DNA from: Candidatus Bruticola sp.
GTDB lineage: Bacteria > Vulcanimicrobiota > Xenobia > Xenobiales > Xenobiaceae
Assembly: GCA_051874735.1 (NCBI GenBank)
Contig: JBJEGD010000022.1
Location: 52,216-116,215 of the forward strand
Direction: 5' to 3'
DNA: 64,000 bases
Positions 17,005 through 37,879 of the stretch are shown piece by piece. The translations under genes were made by a program, and so were the position numbers. The notes beneath the pieces are model-generated. The model was not told the origin of the DNA, ran no database searches, and was given only the letters and a program-made list of their open reading frames with translations. Position 1 is the first letter of the stretch, and each line of letters starts with the position of its first letter.

Positions 17005-17631
17005 TCTTTATTATCAAGGAGCCTGCCTCGAATTTAAACAACGCTGTGATCGCAACTATTTATTGAATATACAATATTTGTTAACGCGCCCAGAACTTGA
17101 TGTCTTTAAAGATGATTTCATGTTTACGCTGACTTTGATACTATTCATCGAGATAACTTAAGTCAATTTATTAAATATAGTTTTTATCATTTTCTATGAA
17201 TATATCTTTTACAGCATAAAAACTATATACAGATTATTAAATCAAATATTTAGTATAAAAATCTAAATATTTTTGCATTAAAAAAGCACTATTTTTATCC
17301 CAACCTATTAAAAAAATTCTATTTATAAGAAGAAAAAAAACATGGTTACAGACAATAAAATCTTAACGATAACGCACCAGCAAATTATTTTCGTGAATTG
17401 GTAGAAATTTAAAAATTTCAATCAAATTTCGTATGAAATGCAAAAAAAAGCTTTAAAACCCTGAACAAATGGCAGGTTAGCCTTATACTGAAGAAGAACC
17501 CCACCGCCCCCGGCTAAATAGGATAGTTCGCTATGCGCTTCTGCACTCCGAAGAGCAGACCCGGACTGGGAAAGATAAAAAGATCCCGTCAGTTCATAAG
17601 CCGAAGATAATTTTTTTTGGAGTGATCTTCC

Positions 17632-19014
17632 TTGAAGCGCTATGTAATAGTGGGAGGCGGAGCAGCCGGTCTAACCTTAGCTTATTATTTATGTAAAGCT
17701 GGACTGCCTACTGTAGTAATAGAAAGAGAAAGTAATGTAGGCGGTTTATCGCGCACTTTTCATTACGGTGACTGGTCTTTTGACATAGGCCCTCACCGTT
17801 TCTATTCACAAAATCCTAAAGTAAACCGATTTTTAAAAGAAGTTCAGGGAGACGGCTTTGCAGAGATACCCAGATTTTCTCAAGTGTACTTTATGGGTAA
17901 GTACCATGAATGGCCGCTGCGCTTGGAAACTATAGCCAAGCTTCCTCCCAACGTAGCTTTGCAGGCCGGCCTGGACATGTTCTTTAGAACAGGACGAAGT
18001 AACCGCAGTTCCAGCAATACTTTTAAAGATTATGTACTCTGTCGCTACGGCAAGACTTTATACGAAACTTTCTTTAAAGATTACACTGAGAAATTTGTGG
18101 GAATTTCTACAGAGAACACCCACCGCAATTGGGCAAAAATAGGGCTGGAACGAGCAACTATCGACGATAATGTCAACACAGCCTCTCTATTCGAGATATT
18201 CAAACTGATGCTGCTGCCTAAAAAAGCAGAGCTCAATTTTCTTTACCCTAATTCAGGTGGTATTTGTTCGTTTTGGGAAAACTGTCAACGCCGCATAATA
18301 GATATGGGCGGTGAAATTATCACTCAAAGCGAAGTATCCGCCTTAATATATAGCGTAACCGATAATGGCCTGAACGAAATTAGCGAAGTCGTTACCACAA
18401 AAGGAAAAATAGAGTGTCAGGAGTTAGCTTGGAGTGCTTCCATCAATGAACTGGCTAATAAACTTAATTTAACGCCTACACAATTAGATTATAGATCGCA
18501 AATTATATGTTCAGTAATGTTGGATAAGCCCCCTAAACACCGCTCACAGTGGTGTTATTTCGGAGACAAGAATCTATTATTTTCTCGTATATCAAATCCA
18601 TCATGCTTCAGCCCGAGCTGCGCTCCTCAAGGACGAGGGGGGCTGTGCTTGGAAATAACCTGTCAATATCAAGATGATATGTGGCACGACCCGGAAAAAC
18701 TCATTCCCCGTCTCATAGAGGAGCTTCATCAAGTTGGCGTCATTAACGACAGCATCAAAGTTCTGGACGCTCGAGTTGAAAAAATTAGGGATGCTTATCC
18801 TATTTACAGTCTTAATTACATTGACAGACTCAATCTTTTAGACAAAGAGTGCAGTGCTTTCAAAAATTTAGAATTATTAGGACGTACTGGTCGTTTCTGG
18901 TATAACAATTTAGACCATTCTATAGAAAATTCTTTAAGCACAGCTGCCAAATATTTAAAAAAGCTACATAATTTATCAGCGAAGGCGGAATCTGTTATGG
19001 AGGAAGTTTCATAG
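17632..19014 (+). CDS. FAD-dependent oxidoreductase (amine-oxidase / protoporphyrinogen-oxidase-like fold)
   Basis: N-terminal dinucleotide-binding YVIVGGGAAGLTLAYYL...VIERESNVGG. TTG start with GGAG upstream. Confidence 0.7.
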   Translation: MKRYVIVGGGAAGLTLAYYLCKAGLPTVVIERESNVGGLSRTFHYGDWSFDIGPHRFYSQNPKVNRFLKEVQGDGFAEIPRFSQVYFMGKYHEWPLRLETIAKLPPNVALQAGLDMFFRTGRSNRSSSNTFKDYVLCRYGKTLYETFFKDYTEKFVGISTENTHRNWAKIGLERATIDDNVNTASLFEIFKLMLLPKKAELNFLYPNSGGICSFWENCQRRIIDMGGEIITQSEVSALIYSVTDNGLNEISEVVTTKGKIECQELAWSASINELANKLNLTPTQLDYRSQIICSVMLDKPPKHRSQWCYFGDKNLLFSRISNPSCFSPSCAPQGRGGLCLEITCQYQDDMWHDPEKLIPRLIEELHQVGVINDSIKVLDARVEKIRDAYPIYSLNYIDRLNLLDKECSAFKNLELLGRTGRFWYNNLDHSIENSLSTAAKYLKKLHNLSAKAESVMEEVS

Positions 19015-19260
19015 CAGCACCCAAATTGGGCAGCAGGACGGTTCGAGCCGGTTTGGGCGCCGTGGTGTCCTTCGACAGTTCTGAATGCGCTAACAATCAG
19101 CTTTGAACTTCCCGTAGAATTACAATATATCATCAAAGTTGAATTTATCAAATTTAGGAAAGGGGAGTTGGTCTTCCATCAGGGCTGTCTGTCTTCTGAG
19201 AGTAAATAACCAGAGCGGCTGAGCCCACATTGTGGAAGATCAATTTGCAGCGCACGCAGA

Positions 19261-21342
19261 ATGTCTAATATCTTAAAGAACGGATGGCCTATTCCGAGGT
19301 TTGATTTAGCGCTGGGCATTACCGATATTCAGTGGCTCATCGGTGAAATCAGTAATGCTAGAGATAGTGAAATTGAAAAGTTTGAAAACAAGTTTGCCGA
19401 GTTTCTAGGCGTAAAAAAAGCCATTTACATGAACTCTGCCCGCGGAGCTCTCTATTTGATATTGCAATGTCTCAATTTAGCTCCGCATTCTAAAGTAATT
19501 ATCCCTGCTTGGACACATCATTCTATACCTTCGGTTATTATTGCTGCCGGTCTCCAGCCTCATTTGGTCGATATTCGTGAAGGCAGCTGGGTTATGGGGC
19601 CAGAAACTATAAGCGATGAGGACTGGGAAGGCGTTTCTGCCGTTATTATAACTCACATGTACGGATGTCCGGCCCCCGTAGAAGAGCTCACAGCCATTGC
19701 CAGAAGTAAAAACATCGTAGTCATTGAAGATTGCGCCCAAGGTTTTGGGGCCTCCGTAAACGGGAAAAAAGTCGGCACTTTTGGTGATGCAGCTATATTT
19801 TCTTTCGCTCTTACTAAAAACTTCACCACTTTGGGTGGAGGAATGGCAGTTTTTCAAAATCCGCACTTGGCAGAAGTTGCCTCCTTGCGCATGGAAGATT
19901 CGTATATTACCCCCAGTTCTTCCATATATCCTAAAATCTTCAAAGCAGCTGCTATGTGGGCAGGCACCACAACGTTAGGCTTTACTTTAAGCGCTTATGT
20001 TTTCCTTAGTGTCGGTTGGTCGTTTTTAGGTAAAGATACGCTGCATAGCATGTTCGAAGACAGCATTAACACAAATGCTCCTGATATCAGTGCTAAGCCT
20101 TCGCCAGTTCAAGCGGCTCTAGGCAGACGTCTGCTAGAATGGGCTGACGAGCAAAACAAGCAACGCACCCAAAACGGTAAAAAATTAATAGAACTTTTCC
20201 AGCAGGCCAAACTGCCAGGATTAGTAATTCCCAAATATCCTTCCTACGGAGAGTCAGTCTTCACTTCGTTTGTTGTCGGCCACATAGAAAACGAAAAACT
20301 GGCTCGTCAACTTTCAAGTCACAGCGTTGATACTTCTCCGGGATATTTAAAACCAGTTCAGCAAATACCCATGTTTTCTGAGTCGGTGAGTTATACCAGT
20401 AAACTAACAACCAGCAACTTGTTAGCCCGCACTCAACTCCATTTGCCCATATATCCTCGCCTAAAAGACGAAGATCTGGAGCGCATCGTCAAAGGATGTC
20501 GCTATTCACTCGACACCATTCTTCACTATGGAGGGAATAAAGAGTTTAATCTACCTGTAGTGAAAGAAGAGAAACCGCATGACGTACTTTACCATGGCAG
20601 CGATCCGCTTGCTGCCGATTACTCCCCTAAACGCATAAAACCTGAAAAAACTTCGCATTATTTGGGAGCTGACGAATCGTTGTCGACCAGACGCTCTTCG
20701 GCAGAATCTCAAGCGGTGGAACCGGATGCGAGTTCCAATTTACAATCTGACCGTCCATCCACATCTACTTTTTCTGCACATTCTTCTCCAGTTCAGCAAT
20801 CATTTGCGCCCCCATCTAACAATTTAGCCGCTTCTACAGTAACTTCTTTAACAGACAAACAGTCGGCGGCCGTCCCGCCTAAGCATCCAGCGGCTCCGCC
20901 ACTGCCTCCTTCAGCGCTGGGGAAGTCAGCTGCTATCCCGCCCAGTCGCCCAGCAGCTACGCCACTGCCCCCATCAGCGGCCGGAAAGTCCGCTACTGTC
21001 CCGCCCAGCCGTCCGACAGCTCCGCCGCTACCTCCATCAGCAACTGGACGGTCAACTCCACCCCAGCTCAATCGCCCAACAGCTCCTCCTTTGCCTCCTT
21101 CAGCATCCGGACGCCTTGCCACGTTACCTAATTCTGGTGCAGGACGCCCAGTTACACCAACATCATCTGGCACGGATCGTCTTTCAGCTGCTCCTACTCA
21201 CTCTCGCCCGGTGGCCTCTTCAGTAGCTAAAAACATTTTGGCTCTGCGCAAGAGTCCAACCTTCAGCGGTTCGGCCGGTGCTGAGACAGCCAATAAAGCC
21301 CATACCTCGGCTTCAGATGGCAGTGACAATAGAGCAAAGTAA
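19261..21342 (+). CDS. DegT/DnrJ/EryC1/StrS-family PLP-dependent sugar aminotransferase fused to C-terminal Pro-rich tandem-repeat tail
   Basis: Residues 1-~420 align to the DegT family (ITHMYGCPAPVEEL...IEDCAQGFGAS...FSFALTKN). Residues ~470-620 are repeats of the form RPxAPPLPPSAxGKSA. Confidence 0.8.
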   Translation: MSNILKNGWPIPRFDLALGITDIQWLIGEISNARDSEIEKFENKFAEFLGVKKAIYMNSARGALYLILQCLNLAPHSKVIIPAWTHHSIPSVIIAAGLQPHLVDIREGSWVMGPETISDEDWEGVSAVIITHMYGCPAPVEELTAIARSKNIVVIEDCAQGFGASVNGKKVGTFGDAAIFSFALTKNFTTLGGGMAVFQNPHLAEVASLRMEDSYITPSSSIYPKIFKAAAMWAGTTTLGFTLSAYVFLSVGWSFLGKDTLHSMFEDSINTNAPDISAKPSPVQAALGRRLLEWADEQNKQRTQNGKKLIELFQQAKLPGLVIPKYPSYGESVFTSFVVGHIENEKLARQLSSHSVDTSPGYLKPVQQIPMFSESVSYTSKLTTSNLLARTQLHLPIYPRLKDEDLERIVKGCRYSLDTILHYGGNKEFNLPVVKEEKPHDVLYHGSDPLAADYSPKRIKPEKTSHYLGADESLSTRRSSAESQAVEPDASSNLQSDRPSTSTFSAHSSPVQQSFAPPSNNLAASTVTSLTDKQSAAVPPKHPAAPPLPPSALGKSAAIPPSRPAATPLPPSAAGKSATVPPSRPTAPPLPPSATGRSTPPQLNRPTAPPLPPSASGRLATLPNSGAGRPVTPTSSGTDRLSAAPTHSRPVASSVAKNILALRKSPTFSGSAGAETANKAHTSASDGSDNRAK
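20872..21135 (+). repeat. ~63-bp imperfect tandem repeat (about 4 copies) encoding PPSRPxAPPLPPSAxGKSAxx
   Basis: Repeated ccgcc(c)agtcgcccagcagctac/gccgctgcc(t)cc(a)tcagc units, directly visible in the DNA. Confidence 0.7.
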
Positions 21343-21449
21343 GGCAAAAGCTAGCAGAAGCTGTTCGTCGTAACGGCGTTTTTAGGTCTGCTTCAGCTTT
21401 AGCCTAAATTTACTTATAAAGGTTAATTTACAATTAGGCAAAAAACGAT

Positions 21450-22484
21450 ATGAAATTTATAACTATGGCCAAAGCAGGAGCGGCCGTTCTGAAAGGACGA
21501 CTCAGCGGTTCGCCTCGCCCTATTTTCGCTACTATAGCAACCAACAACACTTGCCAGTCTCGCTGTCATTACTGCAAAATTCCGGCCAGGAAACAACCGG
21601 AGTTGACTACAGAACAAATAAAAACCTTAATTAAACAAATGGCGGAATTCGGTATCCAGCGTTTAGGTATCTGGGGAGGCGAACCTCTGCTGCGCAGCGA
21701 TATTGAAGAGCTGGTAGCTCACGCCAAGCATTTCGGTTTATATACAACTTTAGACACAAACGGATATCTTGTTCCTCAGAAAAAGTCTCTGCTAAAAGAA
21801 CTGGATCATATAATAATCTCGTTAGACGGTCCAGAAGAGGCTCACGATGCTAACCGAGAACCTGGATCGTTTCTTAAAGCTATGGCCGCAGTAGAAACTG
21901 CCGCGGCTAGTCAAGTCGCTCTTTGGACAATTACCGTACTTACATCTAATAATATTCACCAAGTAGACTGGATACTAGATCAGGCTGATAAATACAAATT
22001 TACTCCTACATTCCAAGTTCTGCATCACAGCGAATATTTTGGTTTGAACAATCCCCTGCGCCCTTCCGACCAAGAATATAAGCAATGCCTTCTCTATTTG
22101 AAAGAAGCTAAATTAAAAGGACGCAGGATTGGCAACTCTATTCAATGCTTAGATCATTTACTGAATTGGTCCTCTTTCAGCCAAAATACTTCTATAGAAG
22201 GAGGGCTAGGCTGGAGTCATTGCTGGGCCGGGCGTTTTTATTTAAACATAGACGCCGACGGACGGCTCTATCCTTGTTCCCTTCTTATAGGCGACAAATT
22301 GGGGCCGAGTGCTCTAGAACTAGGCTTTGCAGAAGCAGCGGCCCAGGTTAGCCGTTATCCCCTACCTTGCCAAAGTTGTTCAGCAACTTGCTTTACAGAA
22401 TACAATCTGCTCTTCTCTCTTAATCATCATACTATCATGCAGTGGGTCATGGCTATGGGCAGCAAACTGCATAAAAGCAAATAG
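21450..22484 (+). CDS. Radical SAM protein with C-terminal SPASM/twitch-like Cys cluster
   Basis: CQSRCHYC (Cx3Cx2C) near N-terminus, GGEPLL glycine motif, C-terminal CQSCSATC. Confidence 0.75.
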   Translation: MKFITMAKAGAAVLKGRLSGSPRPIFATIATNNTCQSRCHYCKIPARKQPELTTEQIKTLIKQMAEFGIQRLGIWGGEPLLRSDIEELVAHAKHFGLYTTLDTNGYLVPQKKSLLKELDHIIISLDGPEEAHDANREPGSFLKAMAAVETAAASQVALWTITVLTSNNIHQVDWILDQADKYKFTPTFQVLHHSEYFGLNNPLRPSDQEYKQCLLYLKEAKLKGRRIGNSIQCLDHLLNWSSFSQNTSIEGGLGWSHCWAGRFYLNIDADGRLYPCSLLIGDKLGPSALELGFAEAAAQVSRYPLPCQSCSATCFTEYNLLFSLNHHTIMQWVMAMGSKLHKSK

Positions 22485-22546
22485 TTACCTATATATATCT
22501 TGATCAATTATGCTCATTACGGCGATCTTTAATTGTAGGAAATTTT

Positions 22547-24007
22547 ATGAAGGTACTTTTAATTAACCCACCGCGCGATAACAGCATTTCTTCAGAAGTC
22601 CCCACCACAGTCAACGCCGAAACTAATACTATTCCCCCATTAGGATTGATGTATTTAGAGGCTCATTTACACAAGTACTCTAATAATTCAGAAGTGCGCA
22701 TCGTAGATTGTCTGGCTGATCACCTACACATAGATCAGCTGCGCAGAATTGTAGCTGATTATCAGCCCCAAATTGTAGGTGTCACCGGACACACACACGA
22801 TTTAATTGATATGATGCAAACTTCCCAAATGGCTAAAGAAGAACTAGGAAGTAAAGTCAAAATATTTTGGGGAGGGCCACACGTTTCCGACTTTCCTACT
22901 CAATCTATGAAATACAGCTGTGTAGACGGGTGTATTCCTTTTGAAGGTGAAGAGGCTTTTACAGAGGTTGTAACTGCTCATGCTGCGGCTTGGAATGACC
23001 AATCGGGCTACGACAATAAAACTTTGGCTGATTATCTGCAAAAAATAGAAGGCATATATTTTAAAAATGAACAGCAGCAGGTCGTACAGACGCCGACTCG
23101 TCGTCCCATCAGCGATTTAGATCTTCTCCCCTTTCCCCGACGTGAAATTTTAGACTATCGCAAATACAGTTATGTACTTGGCAGTGAAGCAGTGGCAACT
23201 TCTCTACTAACTAGCCGGGGATGTCCCTACAAATGTTCCTTTTGCAACACTCCAGGACGTACAACTTGGAGATGGCGCAGTGCTGGATCGGTAGTTGATG
23301 AGTTAGAAAAATGCGCGGAATTGGGAGTAAGTGAGGTGTACATCGTCGATGACACTTTCAATGTGCGCCAAGATCGAGTATTGGCCATATGCAATGAAAT
23401 TCAGAAACGCTCTATAAAAGTAAACTGGAATATCAGAGCCAGAGCCAACTGCATTACACCTGAAACAGTTAAAGCTATGCGCCGTGCAGGGTGTACCAGA
23501 GTCCATATCGGAGTAGAATCAGGTACCGATGAAGGGATGAAAGCACTTAATAAAAATTTGACAACTGCTAAAGTCCGCCAAGCTTTTAAAATGCTCACAG
23601 ACGAAGGTTTGGCTACTGTCTGCTACTTTATGATAGGCTGCCCTCACGACAGTTCTCTAGATGAAATAAACAAAACTATCAATTTTGCTATCGATCTAGA
23701 TCCAGACTATGCCCTATTTGGCATTTTAACTCCTTATCCCAACACATTAGTTTACAATCAAGGCATAGAAAAAGGCATACTCGATCCTAATCATTGGGAG
23801 CAATTCCTGGCTAATCCTTATCCAGATTTTAAGCCACAGGTTTGGACAGAATTTTTTAGCGCAGCCGAGCTAAGTACTTTATGTGATCAAGCCTTTAAAC
23901 GCTTCTATCTGCGTCCTAAACAGATGTTCCGCAAGCTTCTAGAGCTGAAGAATTTCCACGACATGGCCCGCAAATTAAAAGCAGGCTGGGAGATTTTGAA
24001 ATTATGA
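22547..24007 (+). CDS. B12-binding-domain radical SAM protein
   Basis: N-terminal Rossmann-like B12-binding-type domain, then CPYKCSFC (Cx3Cx2C). Confidence 0.75.
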   Translation: MKVLLINPPRDNSISSEVPTTVNAETNTIPPLGLMYLEAHLHKYSNNSEVRIVDCLADHLHIDQLRRIVADYQPQIVGVTGHTHDLIDMMQTSQMAKEELGSKVKIFWGGPHVSDFPTQSMKYSCVDGCIPFEGEEAFTEVVTAHAAAWNDQSGYDNKTLADYLQKIEGIYFKNEQQQVVQTPTRRPISDLDLLPFPRREILDYRKYSYVLGSEAVATSLLTSRGCPYKCSFCNTPGRTTWRWRSAGSVVDELEKCAELGVSEVYIVDDTFNVRQDRVLAICNEIQKRSIKVNWNIRARANCITPETVKAMRRAGCTRVHIGVESGTDEGMKALNKNLTTAKVRQAFKMLTDEGLATVCYFMIGCPHDSSLDEINKTINFAIDLDPDYALFGILTPYPNTLVYNQGIEKGILDPNHWEQFLANPYPDFKPQVWTEFFSAAELSTLCDQAFKRFYLRPKQMFRKLLELKNFHDMARKLKAGWEILKL

Positions 24008-25182
24008 GAAACCCTTGGCCAGTCCTTAAAGCTATTTTAGGTGGGGATACCCCTATTTACGTACACTTTGGCTTAACTCACCGATGCAACTTAACTTGCG
24101 CCATGTGCGGTTTATGGCAAAAGGGCGATAAAAATGAAGAGCTAAGTTTAGAGCAGATAAAGGCTGCTGCTAACAATTTTCGCAAACTAGGCACTGTAGC
24201 CATATCTTTAGGAGGCGGAGAGCCTTTTTTGCGACCGGATCTACCCAAAATTGTGGCAGCTTTCATACGCAACGGTATTGAAACGCGAGTTCTTACCAAT
24301 GCCTTGGCCGGTTCAACTGATATGCACGAAGCTGTAGCTGCTGCCGGTCTGCGCCATATTTCCATCTCCCTAGATACTCCTAACCCTGCAATACAGAGTG
24401 AGATTTGCCACAAGCCAGAAATTTGGGAAAAAATTATTGACAGAATTCGCTTTTGGTCTTCATACATCCAGAAACGTTCTGGAACAGGCTTAATCAACTG
24501 TGTAGTTTCAGCGCGAAACATAAACGATATTCCTAAAATGGCAGCTATTGCCCAAGCTTATAACTTTTATCTGTCTCTGGTGCCTTTAGAAAGACACAGC
24601 TATCAAGGTGAAATACTCAGCTGTTCTCCTGATTCAGAAGAAATGCGCTTTGCCAGCCAAGATGAAGAAAAACTAAACAGCCTCTGGGAATATTTATATA
24701 AACTAAAGAAGCAGCCTAATTCTCCTATTTTCAACTCCATGCCTTATATAAAGGCCATGATTCAATTTTTAAAATACGGCTGCCGAAACGACTCTTCAGA
24801 GACCTCTAATTTGCTTAGCCATAATTTTTGGGGAACTGGACTTGACTGTCAGACGGGTAGCTTAAGCTTTTCAGTCAGTCCCAGCGGCCGCTATTCTATG
24901 TGCCACTTTCAAGATGAGGCTCCGGAAGAGCATCCCAAAGTTTATGAAGATAGTTTTATAAACTGGTACAAGCATAAGCGCGATCTGTCCAAAATAAAAA
25001 AGTTGCGCCGCAGCTGCCTGGCTTGTTTTCGTCCCTGCTGGTGGGAGATAGCCTTAACTATGCATAAATATCCAGCCTTTATGAATGCTCTTCAATTGAC
25101 CTTTCGCCGCATTCCTAGTCAGAAACGTCCATCGCCTTCAGAATTAGTAGAAACTATAAAAAAGGTTCCCCCACTATGTTAG
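24004..25182 (+). CDS. Radical SAM / SPASM-domain protein
   Basis: CNLTCAMC Cx3Cx2C, GGGEPFL. C-terminal CLACFRPCWW auxiliary cluster motif. 4-nt overlap with the upstream gene. Confidence 0.75.
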   Translation: MRNPWPVLKAILGGDTPIYVHFGLTHRCNLTCAMCGLWQKGDKNEELSLEQIKAAANNFRKLGTVAISLGGGEPFLRPDLPKIVAAFIRNGIETRVLTNALAGSTDMHEAVAAAGLRHISISLDTPNPAIQSEICHKPEIWEKIIDRIRFWSSYIQKRSGTGLINCVVSARNINDIPKMAAIAQAYNFYLSLVPLERHSYQGEILSCSPDSEEMRFASQDEEKLNSLWEYLYKLKKQPNSPIFNSMPYIKAMIQFLKYGCRNDSSETSNLLSHNFWGTGLDCQTGSLSFSVSPSGRYSMCHFQDEAPEEHPKVYEDSFINWYKHKRDLSKIKKLRRSCLACFRPCWWEIALTMHKYPAFMNALQLTFRRIPSQKRPSPSELVETIKKVPPLC

Positions 25183-26882
25183 ATACATCCGTTCAAAATA
25201 TGCAAAATAACTGCAGAGAACAAATAGATTCCGCTCCTGGAGCTTCACCTGGTTCAGCTGAAGCGGTCTTTAATCCAGCCGTCGGTTCCCCGGAGCAGAA
25301 TCTTCATGCCCCTTGGGCGCCCAAATCCGGCTGGTATGGTGAGGCTAAAGATTTCAGTGTCGTCTTAATAGCTATGTACAGCGTAGAGAATGCCGGTCTA
25401 CGCTACTTATCGGCAGCTCTTCGTCGCGCAGGCTTCAAAGTAAATCTAATTTTTTTGCGGGATTGGGTCAACAACAAATTAGAAATGCCTTCCGCTGAAG
25501 AACTTGAACTCGTATTTGATATTATTGCTGAAAAAAAAGCTAATTTTGTAGGTATAGGTTTTATTTCTAGCCTACTTTCTATGGCAGAAAAACTTACCGT
25601 ACGCTTAAGAGAACGTTTTCCCCATCTGCCTATCTGCTGGGGGGGAATTCATGTTACGGCAGTGCCTGAAGGGGCTCTCGATTACGCCGACTATCTCTGT
25701 CTTGGAGAGGGAGAAGCTCCCTTAATTGATCTGTGTGAAGCGCTGTATAATAACCAGTTTACTGGAAATATTTTCAATATTTGGGCAAAGCTTAACGGAA
25801 AAATTTTCAAAAATGAAATGCGTCCGCTCATAGCTAATTTAGACGAGCTTCCTTATCCAGACGTAGACGACTTTAACAAATTTTATATCGAAGATAAAAC
25901 TATACACAACGAAGAACCTTGGAAAAGAACGGCCGAGTATCGAATATATTGTTCTAGAGGCTGCCCTTACAATTGCTCTTACTGTTATGTATCTATCCTA
26001 CGCGAAAAATTTGCTGCGGACAAACAGAAGTTTTACCGTCTTCGTTCAGTTGAGCATATACTTGGTGAACTGGAATATATAAAAGCTCATTTTCCACGCT
26101 TGGCTAGAGTAAAAATAGATGATGATACTGCTTTTGCGGCCCCAGCTGCATGGGTAGATGAGTTCTGTACAAAATATCCACAACGCATTAATTTGCCCTT
26201 TGAATGCATGCTTATACCGCCCATGCTGAAACGTCCTTTCTTAGAAAAACTTCAAAAAGCCGGATTAGTTCGCTTGCAAACTGGCATTGAAAGCGGCTCG
26301 CCTCAAGAAAGTTTATCTGTGCACAATAGAGTGCCAGGCAATAATAATATTTTAGCTTTTTCTAAATTTAATAGAGAATTACGTATAAATGCAGTTTACG
26401 ACCTGATTATCGACAATCCATGGGCTTCAGAATCGATGAAATTAGAAACTGCTCAATTTTTATTAGAACTGGAGCGCCCTTACGACATTTACTTTTATTC
26501 GCTAAATTATTTCCCAGGTACAGCCATTACCAAACGTCTTTTAGCAGAAGGACGCATTGATGCAACTCAAGTAGAAGGTCTTAACAACAAAGCTTGGAAA
26601 CAGTTCCGGGTTTCTATGGACTGGCCGCGCAGTCCCGAAGATCGCTTTTACTTGTCGATCTATTGTTTAGCCTCTAAAACGTTTATACCCAAAGCCTTTA
26701 TCCGCTTTCTGCTCAAACATCGCCAATATTTTAAACACCACTGGCAGGTTCCCTTTATTTTAGCTTGGGCTGCAAATTTCTTAAAAATGGGAGCAGTTGC
26801 CTGGCGTTATCTGATCAACGGCGAATTGACCTGGTTCAAAATCAGACAATACGGCGATTTACGCAAACTAATCAGCCAATAA
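25176..26882 (+). CDS. B12-binding-domain radical SAM protein
   Basis: CPYNCSYC Cx3Cx2C after an N-terminal B12-binding-like domain. Overlaps the upstream gene by 7 nt. Confidence 0.75.
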   Translation: MLDTSVQNMQNNCREQIDSAPGASPGSAEAVFNPAVGSPEQNLHAPWAPKSGWYGEAKDFSVVLIAMYSVENAGLRYLSAALRRAGFKVNLIFLRDWVNNKLEMPSAEELELVFDIIAEKKANFVGIGFISSLLSMAEKLTVRLRERFPHLPICWGGIHVTAVPEGALDYADYLCLGEGEAPLIDLCEALYNNQFTGNIFNIWAKLNGKIFKNEMRPLIANLDELPYPDVDDFNKFYIEDKTIHNEEPWKRTAEYRIYCSRGCPYNCSYCYVSILREKFAADKQKFYRLRSVEHILGELEYIKAHFPRLARVKIDDDTAFAAPAAWVDEFCTKYPQRINLPFECMLIPPMLKRPFLEKLQKAGLVRLQTGIESGSPQESLSVHNRVPGNNNILAFSKFNRELRINAVYDLIIDNPWASESMKLETAQFLLELERPYDIYFYSLNYFPGTAITKRLLAEGRIDATQVEGLNNKAWKQFRVSMDWPRSPEDRFYLSIYCLASKTFIPKAFIRFLLKHRQYFKHHWQVPFILAWAANFLKMGAVAWRYLINGELTWFKIRQYGDLRKLISQ

Positions 26883-27703
26883 AAGTGCTTGCCGACTCAC
26901 TCAATGCTTATAGTACAGAATATGCTTAAACAGTCTAGCTACTGACGGCAAAAAATGTCGAAACGATTTCAACTACAAGTGTTATGCTGAGACAAGCATC
27001 AAGGAACAAAATATCTTATTACTTTTAGCTGGTAGCTGAAACGAATTAAATATTTATGTGATAAAAAAATAAGCTGCTTAAGATAGTTAATAAAATTTGC
27101 ACAAACAAGCCTAAACATACGTTTTTATATAGTTTATTAGTGCAGACTAGGCTAAAATTGACTAAAATAAGCCTTATTTTATTAAATTTTTCTGAACATT
27201 TCGTCAACGTAAGTCCTTGACTACTTTGTATGGCCGTTTTACAATCTCAATGCGAATTGGAATTGAAGCTACGATTTTCTTTGGTGTTAGTTATTTTTTT
27301 AGTGAGTTTGATTATGTTTTGCTTGTAAATCCGGTTTTATGAACTTAATTTATAATATTTTTGTCTCTAATGCTTTTATAAAGTGAGTTCACTTGCATGA
27401 TTATAAGCTCATACCCTGCAATTAACGGATATTTTGGAACCTACAAGTTTTTTATCTGCTTATTCTGAGGTAACAGTACTCAAACAGGAGCAAATTACAG
27501 CACCCATAGGAAAAAGGGCTGGAAATGTATCTAAGTACGCATAGAATTTAGTGCTCTGATGCAAACCATAGGGTTCATACTTAGCCGCGAATTTTTGTTG
27601 GCTTGCATGGCTCCTAAGTTTTCTAAGTTATTCAAACTGTAGGAAATATGTCTTACGAAGCTCGCGTTCCTGTTGACTATATTCCTTATTGGAGGGAATT
27701 TGA

Positions 27704-28009
27704 GTGTTTACTGATCGTACTTTAACCTGCTGCGACTGTGGCAACGATTTTGTTTTTACTGCCGGAGAGCAGGAGTTTTATGCCTCCAAAGGTTTTGCCA
27801 GCGATCCCCGCCGCTGTCCGGAGTGTCGTCGTATCCATAAACGAAACCGAGAAAATGGCGCATTAGGCCGTTCTAATGGTACGCGTGAAATGTTTGAAGT
27901 CATTTGTGCAGAATGCGGCCAAACTGCTAAAGTACCTTTCCGACCTCGCAATGATAAACCTATTTACTGCAGCGATTGTTTCAAAAAACACGGCGGCGCC
28001 CATCGCTAA
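27704..28009 (+). CDS. Small duplicated zinc-ribbon protein (zf-trcl-like)
   Basis: Two repeats of a CxxC...CxxC ribbon: LTCCDCGNDFVFTAGEQEFYASKGF...RCPECR and ICAECGQTAKVPF...YCSDCF. GTG start with GGAGGG RBS 7 nt upstream. Confidence 0.6.
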   Translation: MFTDRTLTCCDCGNDFVFTAGEQEFYASKGFASDPRRCPECRRIHKRNRENGALGRSNGTREMFEVICAECGQTAKVPFRPRNDKPIYCSDCFKKHGGAHR

Positions 28010-28055: not shown

Positions 28056-28096
28056 GCCGTTCCCCCCTTATTAGGGGGAACGGCCTTATTTTTTTG
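28056..28096 (+). terminator. Rho-independent terminator
   Basis: gccgttcccccc / ggggggaacggc, 11-12 bp perfect stem, 6-nt loop, followed by a T8 run. Confidence 0.65.
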
Positions 28097-29244: not shown

Positions 29245-29748
29245 ATGCGTATAGTCACAGCTTTCAAAGCTTTTTTTAAAGCCCTGTTCGATGGTACTTT
29301 TGCTGAAAAGTTGTCCATTTTATTAGGAGAAAAAGCAGAGCAGCCCCAGTCATCAGTTAGCACCCCTTCAATGTATCCTGGTGCAGTCGGACTGCTAGCT
29401 CTGCTGCAGCGTGAAGGGCGGCTCATAGATTTTTTGCAAGAAAACCTAGATAACGTTCCTGAGGCGCAGATAGGCGCAGTCGTCAAATCTACTGTATATA
29501 AAGGATGCCGCAAAGCCCTTAAAGATTATCTGGAGCTAGAGCCAGTGCGCTCAGAAGAAGAAGGCTCCGAGATCACAGTAGATGAAGGTTTTGATCCCAA
29601 CAGCATCCGTTTAGTTGGCAAAGTTGAAGGGAACCCTCCATTTAAAGGCATCTTACGCCACCAAGGCTGGCGTCTTGTTAAAGCAAATCTTCCTCAAAGT
29701 ACCGATGATAATTCCGATATTATTTGTCCAGCCGAAGTAGAACTTTAA
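29245..29748 (+). CDS. DUF2760-like small protein (Hsp70-associated)
   Basis: Immediately upstream of a non-canonical Hsp70, 2-nt gap. Family call is from memory and not from a diagnostic motif. Confidence 0.35.
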   Translation: MRIVTAFKAFFKALFDGTFAEKLSILLGEKAEQPQSSVSTPSMYPGAVGLLALLQREGRLIDFLQENLDNVPEAQIGAVVKSTVYKGCRKALKDYLELEPVRSEEEGSEITVDEGFDPNSIRLVGKVEGNPPFKGILRHQGWRLVKANLPQSTDDNSDIICPAEVEL

Positions 29749-29749
29749 T

Positions 29750-31612
29750 TTGCAGAGGCTATATATTGAAAAAGTATTCCAGGAGAGAGAACATTTTATG
29801 ATTATAGGTATAGACTTAGGAACGACTAACTGCGCCGTAGCCTGGTCCGATCCGGATGCTATTTCATCAGAACAGAAAACCCGCAAAGAGACTCCACCTA
29901 TACACCATTTTGCTATTTCCCAACTGACTTATCCGGCCACCGTTGAACATCGCAGCACTTTGCCATCTTTTTTGTATTTTCCAGGCACTCACGAACTCCC
30001 CCCAGGTAGTCTAGAACTTCCTTGGGATAAAAACATTAACAGTGTTGTAGGCTACTTAGCTCGTGAGCAAGGAGCTAAAGTTCCTCATAGAGTTGTTTCT
30101 TCGGCAAAATCTTGGCTTTCCGGTGATCAGGCTGATCGCAATGCCCCAATTCTTCCCTGGAATGCCCCAGATGAAGTTGAGCACATTTCCCCTATAGACG
30201 CTTCATCTCGATACTTAGAACATTTGCGCTCTGCTTGGGATTTTGAACATCCAGAATGTCCTCTAGCTGAGCAACAAATTGTACTTACCGTCCCTGCTTC
30301 TTTTGATACTATTGCCAGAGAACTTACTGTTCAGGCAGCTCATAAAGCCGGCCTTACCAAACTTACCTTACTCGAAGAACCGCAAGCTGCTTTTTATGCC
30401 TGGTTGGACAACAGTGAAAAAGATTGGCGTTCGCAAGTTGCTGTGGGGGATAAAATATTAGTCTGTGACATCGGAGGAGGCACCACTGACTTTAGCCTTA
30501 TAAGCGTAACCAATCAAGATGGTAATTTATCCTTAGAACGCTCAGCAGTTGGAGACCATATTTTGTTAGGCGGAGACAATATGGATCTCACCCTAGCCGT
30601 CTGCTTGCAGCAAAAGCTTAAAGCTGAACGCAAAATTAAGCTCGACAGCTGGCAAATGCAAATACTAACCCATGCTTGCAGAACTGCCAAAGAGCAACTC
30701 CTACAAGAAGATGGCGAAGAAGAATGGAATGTGACTATTCCCGGACGAGGCAGCAGTCTTATTGCTTCCTCTATAACTGTTCCTCTGTCCAGACAACTTA
30801 CTGAACAGCTTATAGTAGATGGCTTTTTTCCGAAATGTTCCATAGAAGATCAAGCTGTCCGCTCTCGTCAAAGCGGTCTGCGCGAGTTAGGATTGCCCTT
30901 TGAGTCAGACCCAGCCGTCACTAAGCATTTAGCTCGTTTCTTAACAGTTAATAAACCTGAAGACAGTACAGTTCCATTCTTTGCACCTACAGCTATTTTA
31001 TTTAACGGAGGAGTATTGAAAGCTCCAATGTTGAGACGCCGCCTAACGGAAACTTTAAATAGTTGGCTCGCCTCTATTGGAGCACCGCCTGTAAAAGAAC
31101 TAGAAGGAGCTGATTACGATCTAGCCGTAGCCCGCGGCGCTGTACGCAGCGGTCTAGCTAGTCATGGAGCGGGCATAAGGATAAAAGCGGGTACTAACCG
31201 CTCGTACTACCTTGGCATTGAAACTTCTATGCCCGCTGTGCCAGGTCTTACTCCACCCATAAAAGCCCTCTGTACGGCTCCATTCGGCATGGAAGAAGAT
31301 TCTCGTGAGAAACTGCCGGGCAGAAGCTTTGGCCTAGTAGTTGGCGAGCCAGTCGAATTTCGTTTTCTTGCTTCAACCTGCCGTCAGCAAGATCAACTCG
31401 GCGATCTTATCGACGATTGGGAAGATGATATGGAAGAATTACCTCCCCTGCAGGTGACCTTGCCCGCCGAAATGGGTGAAGTTGGTAAAATTATCCCCGT
31501 TACTTTAGAAACTCATGTCACTGAAGTAGGCACTTTAGAAGTATGGTGTTGTCAAGAAAATGTTCCCAAATGGCGCTTAGAATTTGAAGTGCGTTCTTCC
31601 GGACGCTCCTAA
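29750..31612 (+). CDS. Hsp70-family protein (non-canonical, actin-like ATPase NBD)
   Basis: IIGIDLGTTNCAVAW phosphate-1 motif, DIGGGTTDFSLI phosphate-2 motif. C-terminal region not a canonical DnaK substrate-binding domain. Confidence 0.8.
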   Translation: MQRLYIEKVFQEREHFMIIGIDLGTTNCAVAWSDPDAISSEQKTRKETPPIHHFAISQLTYPATVEHRSTLPSFLYFPGTHELPPGSLELPWDKNINSVVGYLAREQGAKVPHRVVSSAKSWLSGDQADRNAPILPWNAPDEVEHISPIDASSRYLEHLRSAWDFEHPECPLAEQQIVLTVPASFDTIARELTVQAAHKAGLTKLTLLEEPQAAFYAWLDNSEKDWRSQVAVGDKILVCDIGGGTTDFSLISVTNQDGNLSLERSAVGDHILLGGDNMDLTLAVCLQQKLKAERKIKLDSWQMQILTHACRTAKEQLLQEDGEEEWNVTIPGRGSSLIASSITVPLSRQLTEQLIVDGFFPKCSIEDQAVRSRQSGLRELGLPFESDPAVTKHLARFLTVNKPEDSTVPFFAPTAILFNGGVLKAPMLRRRLTETLNSWLASIGAPPVKELEGADYDLAVARGAVRSGLASHGAGIRIKAGTNRSYYLGIETSMPAVPGLTPPIKALCTAPFGMEEDSREKLPGRSFGLVVGEPVEFRFLASTCRQQDQLGDLIDDWEDDMEELPPLQVTLPAEMGEVGKIIPVTLETHVTEVGTLEVWCCQENVPKWRLEFEVRSSGRS

Positions 31613-31962: not shown

Positions 31963-33066
31963 ATGATCCCTATTTTAGAACTTCGCACTCAGTACTCTCA
32001 AATTCAAGATGAATTAGAAGAGGCTGTACTGAAAGTTCTGCGCTCTACGGCCTACGTTCTAGGCCCCGAGGTAAAAGCTTTTGAAGAGGAGTTCGCCGCT
32101 TGGAACGGAGTTAAGCACGGTATCGGCGTAGGAAACGGCACAGATGCTCTACAGTTGGCAGTTAGGGCCCTAGATTTAAAAGCCGAAGATGAAGTAATCG
32201 TACCCTCGTTTACTTTTGTTGCCTCCGCCGGAGCTGTCGCTTTAGCCGGTTCTAAAGTAGTTTTCGCTGATATTGATCCCCATACTTTTTCTTTAGATCC
32301 CGAAAGTCTTAAAAAGGCTATAACTCCTCATACTAAAGCGGTAATCTGCGTTCACCTTTACGGACATGCAGCCGATATCAGTGCCATAAAGTCTATCTGC
32401 CAGGAACACAGCTTGGCTCTCATCGAGGACTGCGCTCAGGCCACAGGTGCTGAAATCAACGGACAAAAAGTTGGTGGATTCGGCGATATGAGCTGTTTTT
32501 CTTTCTTCCCCAGCAAAAATTTAGGTGGCATTGGCGATGGCGGCATGGTTTTGACAAATAGCGACAGCTACTTTGAAAAGATCAACATGTTGCGCGGTCA
32601 CGGCAGCAAAGTACGCTATTATCATGAAATTTTGGGTACTAACAGCCGTTTAGATGAAATTCAGGCTGCGGCTCTGCGCGTCAAACTCAGACACGTAAAC
32701 GAATGGAATATAAAAAGGCGCTCTGTAGCTCAAAAATATACAGAGGCCCTGCAAGGTATTGACGGTTTAATTACTCCTGTAGAGCGCGAGGGTTACCGTC
32801 ACGTTTTCCATCAATATACAATTCGTGCGCCTAAGCGGGACGAGCTCTTTGATTATATGCGTGCTCATGGAGTAGGCCCTGCTATTTACTACCCCGTCTG
32901 TCTCCACCTGCAAAAAACCTTTGCAGCTAGCGGAATGAAGGAGGGCTCTCTCCCCGTTTGTGAGCAGCTTCAAAAAGAAGTACTGTCTCTGCCTATGTTC
33001 CCTGAACTTACCGATGAACAAATCAACGCCGTGGTATCTTCAATTAAGAGTTTTTTCCGCGTATAG
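31963..33066 (+). CDS. DegT/DnrJ/EryC1/StrS-family sugar aminotransferase
   Basis: IPILELRTQYSQIQDEL...LGPEVKAFEEEFAAWNGVKHGIGVGNGTDAL. Lys-containing SFFPSKNLGG PLP motif. Confidence 0.85.
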   Translation: MIPILELRTQYSQIQDELEEAVLKVLRSTAYVLGPEVKAFEEEFAAWNGVKHGIGVGNGTDALQLAVRALDLKAEDEVIVPSFTFVASAGAVALAGSKVVFADIDPHTFSLDPESLKKAITPHTKAVICVHLYGHAADISAIKSICQEHSLALIEDCAQATGAEINGQKVGGFGDMSCFSFFPSKNLGGIGDGGMVLTNSDSYFEKINMLRGHGSKVRYYHEILGTNSRLDEIQAAALRVKLRHVNEWNIKRRSVAQKYTEALQGIDGLITPVEREGYRHVFHQYTIRAPKRDELFDYMRAHGVGPAIYYPVCLHLQKTFAASGMKEGSLPVCEQLQKEVLSLPMFPELTDEQINAVVSSIKSFFRV

Positions 33067-33078
33067 GAGATTATCTTT

Positions 33079-35471: not shown

Positions 35472-36461
35472 CTACTTCTGAGCAGCGCAATTAATATAGC
35501 CCATTACATTGGCGCTGTTTAAACTATAACTTCTTCTGGCCACTGAATCGGAAGAGTTGCCTTCAATAGTATAAACCTTACCGTTGGCAACTTTTTCTAC
35601 GATGCCAATATGATCGGAAGTACCATCACCCTGCCAATCGAAGAGAATAGCATCGCCGGGTTGAGGAGTGTAAGAACCACGTCCAGCCCAAATATTTTCC
35701 TTCTTGGCCCAATTGACAATAGTAGGGCAATAGTTTACGTTAGAGCAGGAAGAAGTATCGAGCACGCCATGATCTTTGAGCATATTCATGGCCCAAGCAG
35801 CACACCACGGAGTGGTCTGACAATTAATACCACTCTTCTTAGTAATAGCATTGATTGAAGAAGCATTGGACTTTTCAGTCATACCGACCATAGCTCCAGC
35901 ATCGGATAACAATCCGCTGACACCTGTGTTAGCACCATAGTTACCGTTATTGCCTACACTGCTGGTACCCAGGCCGGAGGATCCTACAACACTGGCGGCC
36001 ACAGAGCTAAGATCCATACCCTGAAGCATATCCCCATACTGAGATATCATAGACTTGCACAGTACATCAATAGTAGAATCGCTCATGCCGGGGAAGTAAG
36101 TTTTGAGATACTGAGTAAGCATCTTGGTGGCTTCTTTAGTTGTCTCATTATCTACCTTAGGGTTAGTGTCCATACTTCCAACAATTGCCTGCAGGAAATC
36201 TTCAAAACTTCCACCAGAGTAAAATGATTTCAGGCAGGCAGCCATCGTTTTGCCTTCACTGCCAGCAGCTTCAAGCCCCTTAATCTGAGAATCGATCAAA
36301 TCTTGGGACAATCCCATCATGCCTTGATTGCCACCAAACACAGAAGTGGCGGATACACCGGTATTAGCCATACTAGAATACATTGCTTGAGAATTGGCAA
36401 GATCTTGACCAATCATGTTGTTCATGCCAGACATGGTAGATGTGTTCAATAGCGCGTTCAT
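35472..36461 (-). CDS. CHAP-domain amidase/peptidase with low-complexity N-terminal region, no signal peptide
   Basis: C-terminal CHAP signature: CAAWAMNML (catalytic Cys), PQPGDAILFDW, DHIGIV (His), IEGN. Start moved to internal M31 (MNALLNTS), which has an AGAGAGG RBS upstream. N-terminal ~200 aa G/S/M/N-rich. Confidence 0.7.
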   Translation of the reverse strand: MNALLNTSTMSGMNNMIGQDLANSQAMYSSMANTGVSATSVFGGNQGMMGLSQDLIDSQIKGLEAAGSEGKTMAACLKSFYSGGSFEDFLQAIVGSMDTNPKVDNETTKEATKMLTQYLKTYFPGMSDSTIDVLCKSMISQYGDMLQGMDLSSVAASVVGSSGLGTSSVGNNGNYGANTGVSGLLSDAGAMVGMTEKSNASSINAITKKSGINCQTTPWCAAWAMNMLKDHGVLDTSSCSNVNYCPTIVNWAKKENIWAGRGSYTPQPGDAILFDWQGDGTSDHIGIVEKVANGKVYTIEGNSSDSVARRSYSLNSANVMGYINCAAQK

Positions 36462-36631
36462 AAGAAAGACCTCTCTTTTAAAACTAGACTTGTCTATATT
36501 TTCAATACATTCTACATTAAAGTAAAGGCCTATTGGCAGACAACTAGACAAAAAATAAAAAATGCCTCTTACCCTGACCGTTACTAAAGTGTAATGCTCA
36601 AAGAAAAGGCACTGTAAAAGAAGCTAATGCA

Positions 36632-37828: not shown

Positions 37829-37879
37829 GGGACCTCCGAAAAATTGTCTTGTCGTACAGATAAAAAACAGAAAAGATAA

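Follow-up and report, generated by a model that had tools for sequence, protein, structure and literature searches.

Anaerobic routes to amino sugars and cyclitols offer several points of comparison for the locus described here. In 2-deoxystreptamine formation for butirosin, the twitch-type radical S-adenosylmethionine (SAM) dehydrogenase BtrN oxidizes a hydroxyl to a ketone that the DegT-family enzyme BtrS aminates, without the use of oxygen. Other radical SAM enzymes, which tailor aminoglycoside and nucleoside antibiotics (AprD4, GenK/GenD1, BlsE, and DesII), use radical chemistry to dehydrate, C-methylate, decarboxylate, or deaminate sugar rings. In the hopanoid pathway, ring contraction of a lipid-bound amino sugar to a cyclitol is attributed to HpnJ, a B12-domain radical SAM enzyme. 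In the Arn pathway to 4-amino-4-deoxy-L-arabinose (L-Ara4N; ArnB, ArnC, and ArnT), a sugar is aminated, loaded onto polyprenyl phosphate, and transferred outside the membrane. Here we analyze a six-gene operon within a 64,000-nucleotide stretch of Candidatus Bruticola sp. (phylum Vulcanimicrobiota, or Eremiobacterota; class Xenobia; contig JBJEGD010000022.1), hereafter the window. The operon joins a homolog of UDP-galactopyranose mutase (UGM) and a DegT aminotransferase to four radical SAM enzymes. With about even confidence, we read it as a pathway for the oxygen-independent tailoring of a nucleotide- or lipid-linked sugar into an amino sugar that is possibly C-branched or ring-contracted. 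By analogy, the nearest precedent for its logic would be the BtrS/BtrN pair. The enzyme superfamilies and the pairing of radical SAM with DegT enzymes are known; this combination, its conservation across uncultured phyla, and the four radical SAM subfamilies are as yet unassigned.

The operon consists of six co-directional + strand open reading frames (ORFs) spanning 17632-26882. An initial interpretation made from the letters alone (the sequence-only reading) had reported six co-directional genes with overlaps of 4 and 7 nucleotides (nt), and the coordinates, which are identical to those it gave, confirm this. The features of the locus are as follows (aa, amino acids).

Gene 1: 17632-19014, + strand, 460 aa with a TTG start, UGM homolog, flavoprotein
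Gene 2: 19261-21342, + strand, 693 aa, DegT-family pyridoxal phosphate (PLP) aminotransferase with a Pro/Ser-rich tail
Gene 3: 21450-22484, + strand, 344 aa, radical SAM enzyme with a probable C-terminal auxiliary-cluster domain
Gene 4: 22547-24007, + strand, 486 aa, B12-binding-domain radical SAM enzyme
Gene 5: 24004-25182, + strand, 392 aa, radical SAM enzyme with the five-Cys C-terminal pattern of gene 3
Gene 6: 25176-26882, + strand, 568 aa, second B12-binding-domain radical SAM enzyme
Tandem repeat: 20887-21041, + strand, 2.5 copies of a 63-bp unit that encodes a 21-aa Pro-rich repeat (Tandem Repeats Finder)
Divergent intergenic region: 17005-17631, no strand, presumed promoter assigned by position, between the - strand division and cell wall (dcw) cluster and the operon

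Genes 4 and 5 overlap by 4 nt (24004-24007) and genes 5 and 6 by 7 nt (25176-25182); the remaining gaps are 246, 107, and 62 nt.

Related clusters were surveyed by tblastn over 89 loci, cited here by L number. The full order 1-2-3-4-5-6 recurs in gut Xenobia (L003, L011, L013, L014, and L015; 55-97% identity) and in UBP9-type genomes (L016-L020 and L090-L092; 40-69% identity). With the same gene order found at 40-97% identity in about ten other genomes, chance does not account for the six-gene block. Proteins from NCBI metagenome-assembled genomes (MAGs) named Candidatus Bruticola sp. match gene 1 at 100% identity and genes 3 and 4 at 90-91%. We take UBP9 to be an earlier GTDB label for the Xenobia lineage; if this is right, vertical inheritance has kept the operon throughout the class. 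In gut Xenobia the operon always adjoins the dcw cluster. In UBP9-type genomes it is located elsewhere, after a transglutaminase-core protein (L090 and homologs in L016, L018, L019, and L092), and its 3' flank in L020 and L090-L092 encodes a 97-99-aa secreted protein followed by a tetratricopeptide repeat (TPR) protein; the flanking genes of L090 lie at L090:5494-7185 and L090:15604-16779. None of these flank proteins (transglutaminase-core, secreted, or TPR) has a homolog in the window.

The curated cut-offs of NCBIfam (June 2026 release) were applied to all six operon proteins, and 0/6 reached one; the database names of homologs are all generic. A literature search on this gene combination (DegT, B12 radical SAM, U32, UGM-like, Xenobia, nucleotide-sugar cobalamin radical SAM) returned no description, and neither a 2026 review of lipid-modifying radical SAM enzymes nor the Mss/Ger paper describes a cluster resembling the operon. 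The view of the block as a real, conserved, and uncharacterized biosynthetic operon is therefore borne out by the recurring gene order, the missed cut-offs, and the generic names, and we found no widespread pathway with assigned functions for all four radical SAM genes. That the block matches no nameable architecture holds for the cluster as a whole, but not for its DegT and twitch-type radical SAM pair, which mirrors the logic of BtrS/BtrN.

Gene 1, taken at first for a generic flavin adenine dinucleotide (FAD) oxidoreductase, proved to be a UGM homolog with the mutase active-site residues conserved. Its Pfam matches are NAD_binding_8 and Amino_oxidase, corresponding to an FAD/NAD(P) Rossmann domain and an amine-oxidase-like region, and its best NCBIfam model is a PRK07208-type 'hypothetical protein', below cut-off. 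When searched by sequence only, solved UGMs matched just its N-terminal third. An AlphaFold2 model built with 25 homologs (pLDDT 87, pTM 0.89) was compared with PDB folds using Foldseek. The best matches were the eukaryote-type UGMs of Aspergillus fumigatus and Trypanosoma cruzi, at a template modeling (TM) score of 0.80-0.81 and an E value of about 1e-28. Protoporphyrinogen oxidases (PPOs) formed the second-best fold class (TM 0.68-0.75), and the carotenoid desaturase CrtI scored TM 0.53. The gene-1 family profile aligned over its full length with T. cruzi UGM (4dsg; E 4e-31). Counted along this alignment, with a three-residue offset of the deposited chain allowed for, H55, R174, R319, Y389, and Y424 of gene 1 correspond to His62, Arg176, Arg327, Tyr395, and Tyr429 of T. 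cruzi UGM, and all five are invariant across 25 gene-1 family sequences. We take these residues to be the flavin-side His and the Arg/Arg/Tyr/Tyr set that holds the UDP diphosphate in UGM. PDB entries of the A. fumigatus UGM mutants H63A, R182K, and R327A/K were among the fold matches. The model is poorly predicted only at residues 176-187 and 196-199, just past R174; UGMs have a mobile active-site loop at the corresponding position.

Model and alignment together place both the three-domain UGM fold and the His/Arg/Arg/Tyr/Tyr set in gene 1, and conservation of the residues that bind the diphosphate speaks for a substrate resembling a nucleotide sugar. Gene 1 thus resembles UGM (Glf) in fold, full-length family alignment, and active-site residues, but it differs in its 16-18% identity, its score below the equivalog cut-off, and its membership in the unassigned PRK07208-type group. 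Because the cut-off of the UGM equivalog TIGR00031 is missed, gene 1 is a distant branch of the UGM superfamily and not a Glf ortholog.

Gene 2 matches PF01041 (DegT) at 214 bits and comprises a core (approximately aa 1-430) and a tail (approximately aa 430-693). Its PLP lysine, K186, is invariant in the DegT alignment. Among DegT equivalogs it scored best against PseC (122 bits; cut-off 423.5), with ArnB at 107 bits (cut-off 631). The best PDB match was glutamine:scyllo-inositol transaminase (2e-35), followed by BtrR/BtrS-type enzymes; keto-sugars or inososes are the substrates of all its closest relatives of solved structure. A moderately hydrophobic insertion of about 55 aa after K186 is common to all cluster-type DegTs and absent from the canonical DegT encoded at 31963-33066. 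Membrane anchoring of the enzymes was considered and rejected, as hydropathy is too low: no operon enzyme has a clear transmembrane helix (Kyte-Doolittle, 19-residue window), and the DegT insertion peaks at 1.44, below the usual threshold.

Genes 3-6 all exceed the PF04055 cut-off of 29.5 bits (71.8, 86.2, 81.0, and 42.3 bits, respectively) and each carries a CxxxCxxC motif, in agreement with the earlier assignment of four radical SAM enzymes. The motif Cys are invariant in the gene-3 and gene-5 family alignments and visible in the sequences of genes 4 and 6. Both the gene-3 and gene-5 families have five further invariant Cys at the C terminus, in the pattern C-x17-C...CxxCxxxC; for gene 5, the complete invariant set is C28/C32/C35 plus C282, C300, C338, C341, and C345. 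Because these five C-terminal Cys are invariant in both families, an auxiliary iron-sulfur (Fe-S) domain of the twitch/SPASM kind is likely in both enzymes. The sequence-only reading, which had placed two enzymes in this category, is thus probably right in broad terms, though the SPASM model PF13186 matched neither gene 3 nor gene 5 at E<=0.01. A 90%-identical ortholog bears the NCBI name 'radical SAM/SPASM domain-containing protein'.

The best fold match of gene 3 is BlsE, and its fold relatives also include ChlB. Its best NCBIfam model is the PTO1314 family, far below cut-off, with NirJ and AhbD also matched and the BlsE model at 53.6 bits (cut-off 400). For gene 5, the best NCBIfam model is PqqE, far below cut-off, and the nearest PDB sequences are PqqE, GDGT-MAS, MoaA, and BlsE. 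Against the Tes/GDGT-MAS model NF045702 (cut-off 450), gene 3 scored 47 bits and gene 5 scored 51 bits. As in BtrS/BtrN, a DegT enzyme is paired in the operon with a small radical SAM enzyme, here one with a likely auxiliary Fe-S domain, and the solved relatives of gene 2 include enzymes of the BtrR/BtrS type. In one UBP9-type operon the gene-3 radical SAM gene is tandemly duplicated, giving two 337-aa copies (L092:593-2767).

Genes 4 and 6 carry N-terminal PF02310 domains above the cut-off of 32.1 bits (gene 4, 57.1 bits at residues 27-141; gene 6, 50.6 bits at residues 68-183). The two B12-binding calls are thereby upheld, and judged by sequence both proteins qualify as class B (cobalamin-domain) radical SAM enzymes. 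Gene 4 scored 178.7 bits against BchE (cut-off 481.35), 177.8 against HpnJ (577.6), 137 against PhpK (600), 131.8 against TIGR04072 (360), and 121.1 against AprD4 (500). Among solved sequences, AprD4, a 1,2-diol dehydratase of aminoglycoside synthesis, comes closest (1e-29) and aligns along the radical SAM half only. The best NCBIfam model of gene 6 is HpnJ (85.1 bits; cut-off 577.6), and gene 6 is almost without solved relatives (AprD4 at 7.5e-5). Gene 6 is 64-69% identical in UBP9-type operons, and its family is large and diverse (1568 representatives of 50%-identity clusters at E<=1e-30). The PDB relatives of genes 4 and 6 fix their superfamilies and not their reactions.

Set against the antibiotic tailoring enzymes, then, gene 4 is nearest to AprD4 by sequence and gene 3 to BlsE by fold, but the scores of both genes fall far below the respective cut-offs, AprD4 aligns with only half of gene 4, and the operon lies in a housekeeping context rather than an antibiotic cluster. 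Likewise, HpnJ is among the best profiles of genes 4 and 6, whereas the remainder of the HpnI/HpnK/HpnJ pathway (an HpnI-like glycosyltransferase, an HpnK deacetylase, or another hopanoid gene) is missing.

Taken together, the data suggest that the operon tailors a carbohydrate in the absence of oxygen, a reading favored by the UGM-like gene 1, the relatives of the DegT enzyme, the BlsE-like gene 3, the AprD4-like gene 4, and the accessory genes of the extended clusters described below. Of the options offered by the sequence-only reading, a sugar or glycolipid substrate gains support. In the scheme we favor, the substrate would most likely be a UDP- or nucleoside diphosphate (NDP)-hexose, or a sugar already on a lipid carrier. 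Gene 1 would bind the sugar diphosphate in the manner of UGM, with reduced flavin acting at the anomeric carbon in a pyranose-to-furanose-type ring change. Gene 3, gene 5, or both, as BlsE/BtrN-like enzymes, may abstract hydrogen from a sugar carbon to yield a keto group; alternatively, the AprD4-like gene 4 may provide a deoxy-keto group by radical diol dehydration. Gene 2 would aminate the keto group, and genes 4 and 6 may add carbon, remove oxygen, or contract the ring. We would expect an amino sugar to result, probably with C-branching, deoxygenation, or ring contraction, and to end up in a glycoconjugate of the cell envelope or in the head group of a glycolipid. In a more specific variant, which we infer, a furanose formed by gene 1 would undergo AprD4-like dehydration of its exocyclic vicinal diol, the resulting deoxy-ketone would be aminated by gene 2, and carbon addition or ring rearrangement would fall to the other radical SAM enzymes.

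Several observations weigh against this scheme. As no curated cut-off is reached, every reaction assignment rests on analogy; gene 1, for instance, scored 34.8 bits against TIGR00031 (cut-off 303.75). The best profiles of gene 4, BchE and HpnJ, act on a tetrapyrrole and a hopanoid head group, and the peptide-modifying enzymes SkfB, SuiB, and anSME rank just below BlsE among the fold matches of gene 3. The six-gene block encodes no nucleotidyltransferase, glycosyltransferase, flippase, or transporter, such that neither the source of the substrate nor the fate of the product is visible; the pathway must consequently start from a common metabolite, and genes outside the operon must supply the enzymes that use its product. 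Finally, some components of the extended clusters fit a simple sugar pathway poorly, namely the U32 protein, the zinc-ribbon radical SAM enzyme, the PaaK-like ligases, the PEMT/ICMT-like methyltransferase, and the IorA/B-like proteins of L057. Fatty acid synthase (FAS), polyketide synthase, and nonribosomal peptide synthetase genes are absent from the window, which counts against alternatives to sugar tailoring.

A profile of the gene-3 family, run on one genome per species (185,579 species), retrieved 149 relatives, all in uncultured MAGs. Larger clusters occur in Chloroflexota (L006), Planctomycetota (L025 and L088), and Omnitrophota (L034, L037, L057, and L070). Most keep genes 2 and 3 (L057 lacks gene 2), gene 1 is present in L025, L057, L070, and L088, and gene 5 is found together with one to six B12 radical SAM genes. 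The order 1-2-3 is preserved from Xenobia to Planctomycetota and Omnitrophota (L025, L070, and L088). Genes added in these extended clusters encode an MJ0619/TrsS-type zinc-ribbon radical SAM enzyme, a U32-family protein, a 261-aa protein with no Pfam or NCBIfam match, a GNAT, a carbamoyltransferase, an Fe-S aldo-keto reductase, a PEMT/ICMT-like methyltransferase, PaaK-like ligases, and an NDP-sugar epimerase/dehydratase. L070 adds a family 2 glycosyltransferase (GT2) and a PMT_2 (GT-C) transferase. In L057:5819-9701, the place that DegT takes in other clusters is filled by an IorA/B-like 2-oxoacid:ferredoxin oxidoreductase together with a 499-aa protein that Pfam does not match; an IS66 transposase marks the edge of this cluster. 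Smaller modules also exist: DegT with genes 3 and 5, alone among housekeeping genes in Myxococcota-type MAGs; gene 3 with gene 1; and gene 3 with the zinc-ribbon enzyme and U32. Gene 3 is the common hub of all related clusters.

The GNAT, carbamoyltransferase, GT2 and PMT_2 pair, and NDP-sugar epimerase/dehydratase are typical of sugar tailoring and transfer. In L070, the DegT gene adjoins the small GT2 and the PMT_2/GT-C gene, recalling Arn; however, the six-gene operon of Xenobia has neither a GT2 nor a GT-C, and Arn itself has no radical SAM enzyme and no mutase. More tentatively, and as a proposal we hold to be somewhat improbable as a whole, the operon and its extended relatives may constitute a so far undescribed route, independent of oxygen and common to Xenobia, Omnitrophota, Planctomycetota, Chloroflexota, and other uncultured anaerobes, by which a furanose gives rise to an unusual amino sugar that is C-branched or carbocyclic. 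In that case, reactions on nucleotide- or lipid-linked sugars without characterized precedent would be carried out by four radical SAM families, two of them twitch/SPASM-like and two B12-type, and a UGM-like flavoenzyme would supply a furanose whose exocyclic diol is the radical substrate. All hosts belong to uncultured lineages, including gut-associated Xenobia. If the sugar assignment is right, six soluble enzymes would provide a compact entry to new radical SAM carbohydrate reactions and to an envelope component specific to these bacteria, and would give a function to two families of B12 radical SAM enzymes (more than 1000 50%-identity clusters) and, within the UGM superfamily, to the large and still unassigned PRK07208-type branch. 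Should the substrate instead be a lipid or cofactor, the operon would still mark an undescribed anaerobic pathway conserved across phyla.

Two leads that arose in the survey were dropped. A tetraether (branched glycerol dialkyl glycerol tetraether) connection was suggested by the Zn_ribbon_HMPTM radical SAM enzyme of Chloroflexota/Eremiobacterota relatives, which scored 121 bits against Tes (cut-off 450), is nearer to TrsS, and is absent from the window. For ladderane and other lipid pathways, no described cluster in the lipid radical SAM literature is alike, and the neighborhood holds no FAS genes. Separately, Fermentibacteria/Aegiribacteria loci (L027:8910-12585 and L031:4660-5634) carry a paralogous gene-3 branch in a conserved but different block, likewise unassigned, in which the radical SAM gene is accompanied by genes for DUF362, an ATP-grasp protein (SucC-like, 498 aa), and a CoA-binding/ligase protein. 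These loci were left out of the functional argument.

Much of the evidence for tailoring of a nucleotide- or lipid-linked sugar would be shared by a diffusible aminocyclitol or pseudo-sugar, aminoglycoside-like or serving in signaling, that is made from a common sugar phosphate or inositol instead of being an envelope component. The scyllo-inositol transaminase and BtrR/BtrS-type relatives of gene 2, the correspondence of a DegT enzyme and a twitch-type radical SAM enzyme to the BtrS/BtrN pair, the position of AprD4 as the nearest solved relative of gene 4, and the carbamoyltransferase and GNAT of the extended clusters all suit such a product. The window, however, encodes no cyclase (2-deoxy-scyllo-inosose or inositol-phosphate synthase), resistance gene, or exporter, and the operon lies among housekeeping genes and has persisted throughout a bacterial class, as antibiotic clusters seldom do. 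We regard this alternative as unlikely.

We judge similarly improbable that the operon modifies a membrane lipid (hopanoid, isoprenoid, fatty-acyl, or membrane-spanning), with B12 radical SAM enzymes methylating or cyclizing a hydrocarbon and the DegT enzyme aminating an oxidized lipid. The matches of gene 4 to HpnJ and to TIGR04072, a model for 'lipid biosynthesis B12-binding/radical SAM' proteins, are in keeping with this, as are HpnJ as the top model of gene 6, the membrane methyltransferase of PEMT/ICMT type and the MJ0619-type zinc-ribbon enzyme (a distant relative of tetraether synthase) in extended clusters, and the hydrophobic character of the DegT insertion. Yet the scores are far under the HpnJ, TIGR04072, and Tes cut-offs, the zinc-ribbon enzyme reaches little more than a quarter of the Tes threshold and is missing from this operon, and the insertion stays below the level usual for a transmembrane helix. 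Gene 1 is far closer to UGM (TM 0.80) than to the lipid desaturase CrtI, and no FAS, isoprenoid, or acyl-carrier genes lie nearby.

Synthesis of a cofactor such as a tetrapyrrole, by a PPO-like flavoprotein, NirJ/AhbD-like radical SAM enzymes, and BchE-like B12 radical SAM enzymes, appears very unlikely. JGI names gene 1 homologs 'protoporphyrinogen oxidase', in line with the rank of PPO as second-best fold class; BchE is the top NCBIfam match of gene 4, NirJ and AhbD are among those of gene 3, and the block sits in housekeeping regions in several phyla. Against this, the conserved motifs of gene 1 are specific to UGM (the diphosphate-binding Arg and Tyr), the scores lie far under the cut-offs (BchE 481, NirJ 515, and AhbD 500), and the window holds no other tetrapyrrole genes. 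We also know of no tetrapyrrole pathway that uses a DegT enzyme.

The remaining question is whether a peptide could be the substrate. The Pro-rich repeat tail noted earlier on the aminotransferase is real: besides the 63-bp repeat, Pro reaches 36% per 50-aa window, which is seen in no other protein among the 43 window ORFs. The tail is confined to gut Xenobia, where its length and sequence vary, and it is absent from the orthologous operons and clusters of UBP9-type, Chloroflexota, Planctomycetota, and Omnitrophota genomes. Because orthologs outside gut Xenobia lack it, the tail cannot be the conserved substrate of the four radical SAM enzymes, and the suggestion that it is a cis-encoded substrate fails. 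Short precursor ORFs had been proposed for 19015-19260 or 26883-27703; a scan down to 20 aa found none in these stretches that is conserved across orthologous loci, the gap between genes 1 and 2 showed nothing conserved when aligned across six loci, and the downstream spacer is absent in L015. By Pfam, neither the operon genes nor their neighbors encode a leader peptidase, transporter, or exporter, and no ORF there is a plausible precursor; the sequence-only reading had likewise seen no transporter, peptidase, or precursor ORF of at least 60 aa. Maturation of a ribosomally synthesized and post-translationally modified peptide (RiPP), with a small precursor or the gene 2 tail as the target of the SPASM-type and B12 radical SAM enzymes, is therefore highly improbable despite the SkfB, SuiB, anSME, and ChlB folds related to gene 3, the weak matches of genes 4 and 6 to the RiPP methyltransferase models ApyD and rSAM_ocin_1, and the repetitive tail, since the six genes include no separate RiPP recognition-element protein either and, to our knowledge, UGM-like and DegT enzymes have no role in known RiPP pathways.

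On the 5' side of the operon, the opposite strand carries the dcw cluster with mraW, ftsL-like, penicillin-binding protein, murE, murF, mraY, murD, ftsW, murG, and murC genes. Promoter-like matches in the divergent region 17005-17631 are consensus hits and no more. Rfam returned no gathering-threshold match in the whole window and none at E<=1 in either operon-flanking intergenic region; the idea of a riboswitch or other RNA element at the operon was dropped. The window contains no tRNA genes.

Downstream of gene 6, the spacer 26883-27703 is 820 bp long and AT-rich, and it is shorter in L011. The genes beyond it encode, in order, a zinc-finger protein and Sua5, then a DUF2760/Hsp70-like pair and a canonical DegT next to a heparinase II/III-like protein, after which more housekeeping genes follow. 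The zinc-finger protein (27704-28009, + strand) has 101 aa and two treble-clef domains (zf_Tbcl and zf_Tbcl_2), and its gene is followed by a strong terminator-like hairpin at 28056-28084, in which 9 of the 11 pairs are G-C and which ends in a T run. At 29245-31612 (+ strand), the DUF2760 gene is directly followed by that of a divergent Hsp70/MreB-like ATPase (620 aa), a pair kept in related Xenobia loci. The canonical DegT (367 aa, 401 bits) and the 753-aa heparinase II/III-like protein are encoded at 31963-35340 (+ strand), about 5 kb from the operon. This pair is syntenic in L003 and L015, L011 terminates inside the DegT gene, and the pair may represent another surface-sugar module. On the - strand, two tandem ORFs of about 400 aa each (36632-39094), whose sole match is a short zinc-ribbon hit apiece, adjoin a CHAP-domain protein gene (35472-36551). 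A 562-aa PRK/uridine-kinase-like protein with an AAA-type P-loop is encoded at 40473-42161 (- strand). It is 41% identical (E 3e-74) to a 550-aa protein (L027:15811-17463) whose gene lies about 5 kb from a gene-3-like radical SAM gene in 19 Fermentibacteria-type loci, a proximity that may reflect a functional link or chance.

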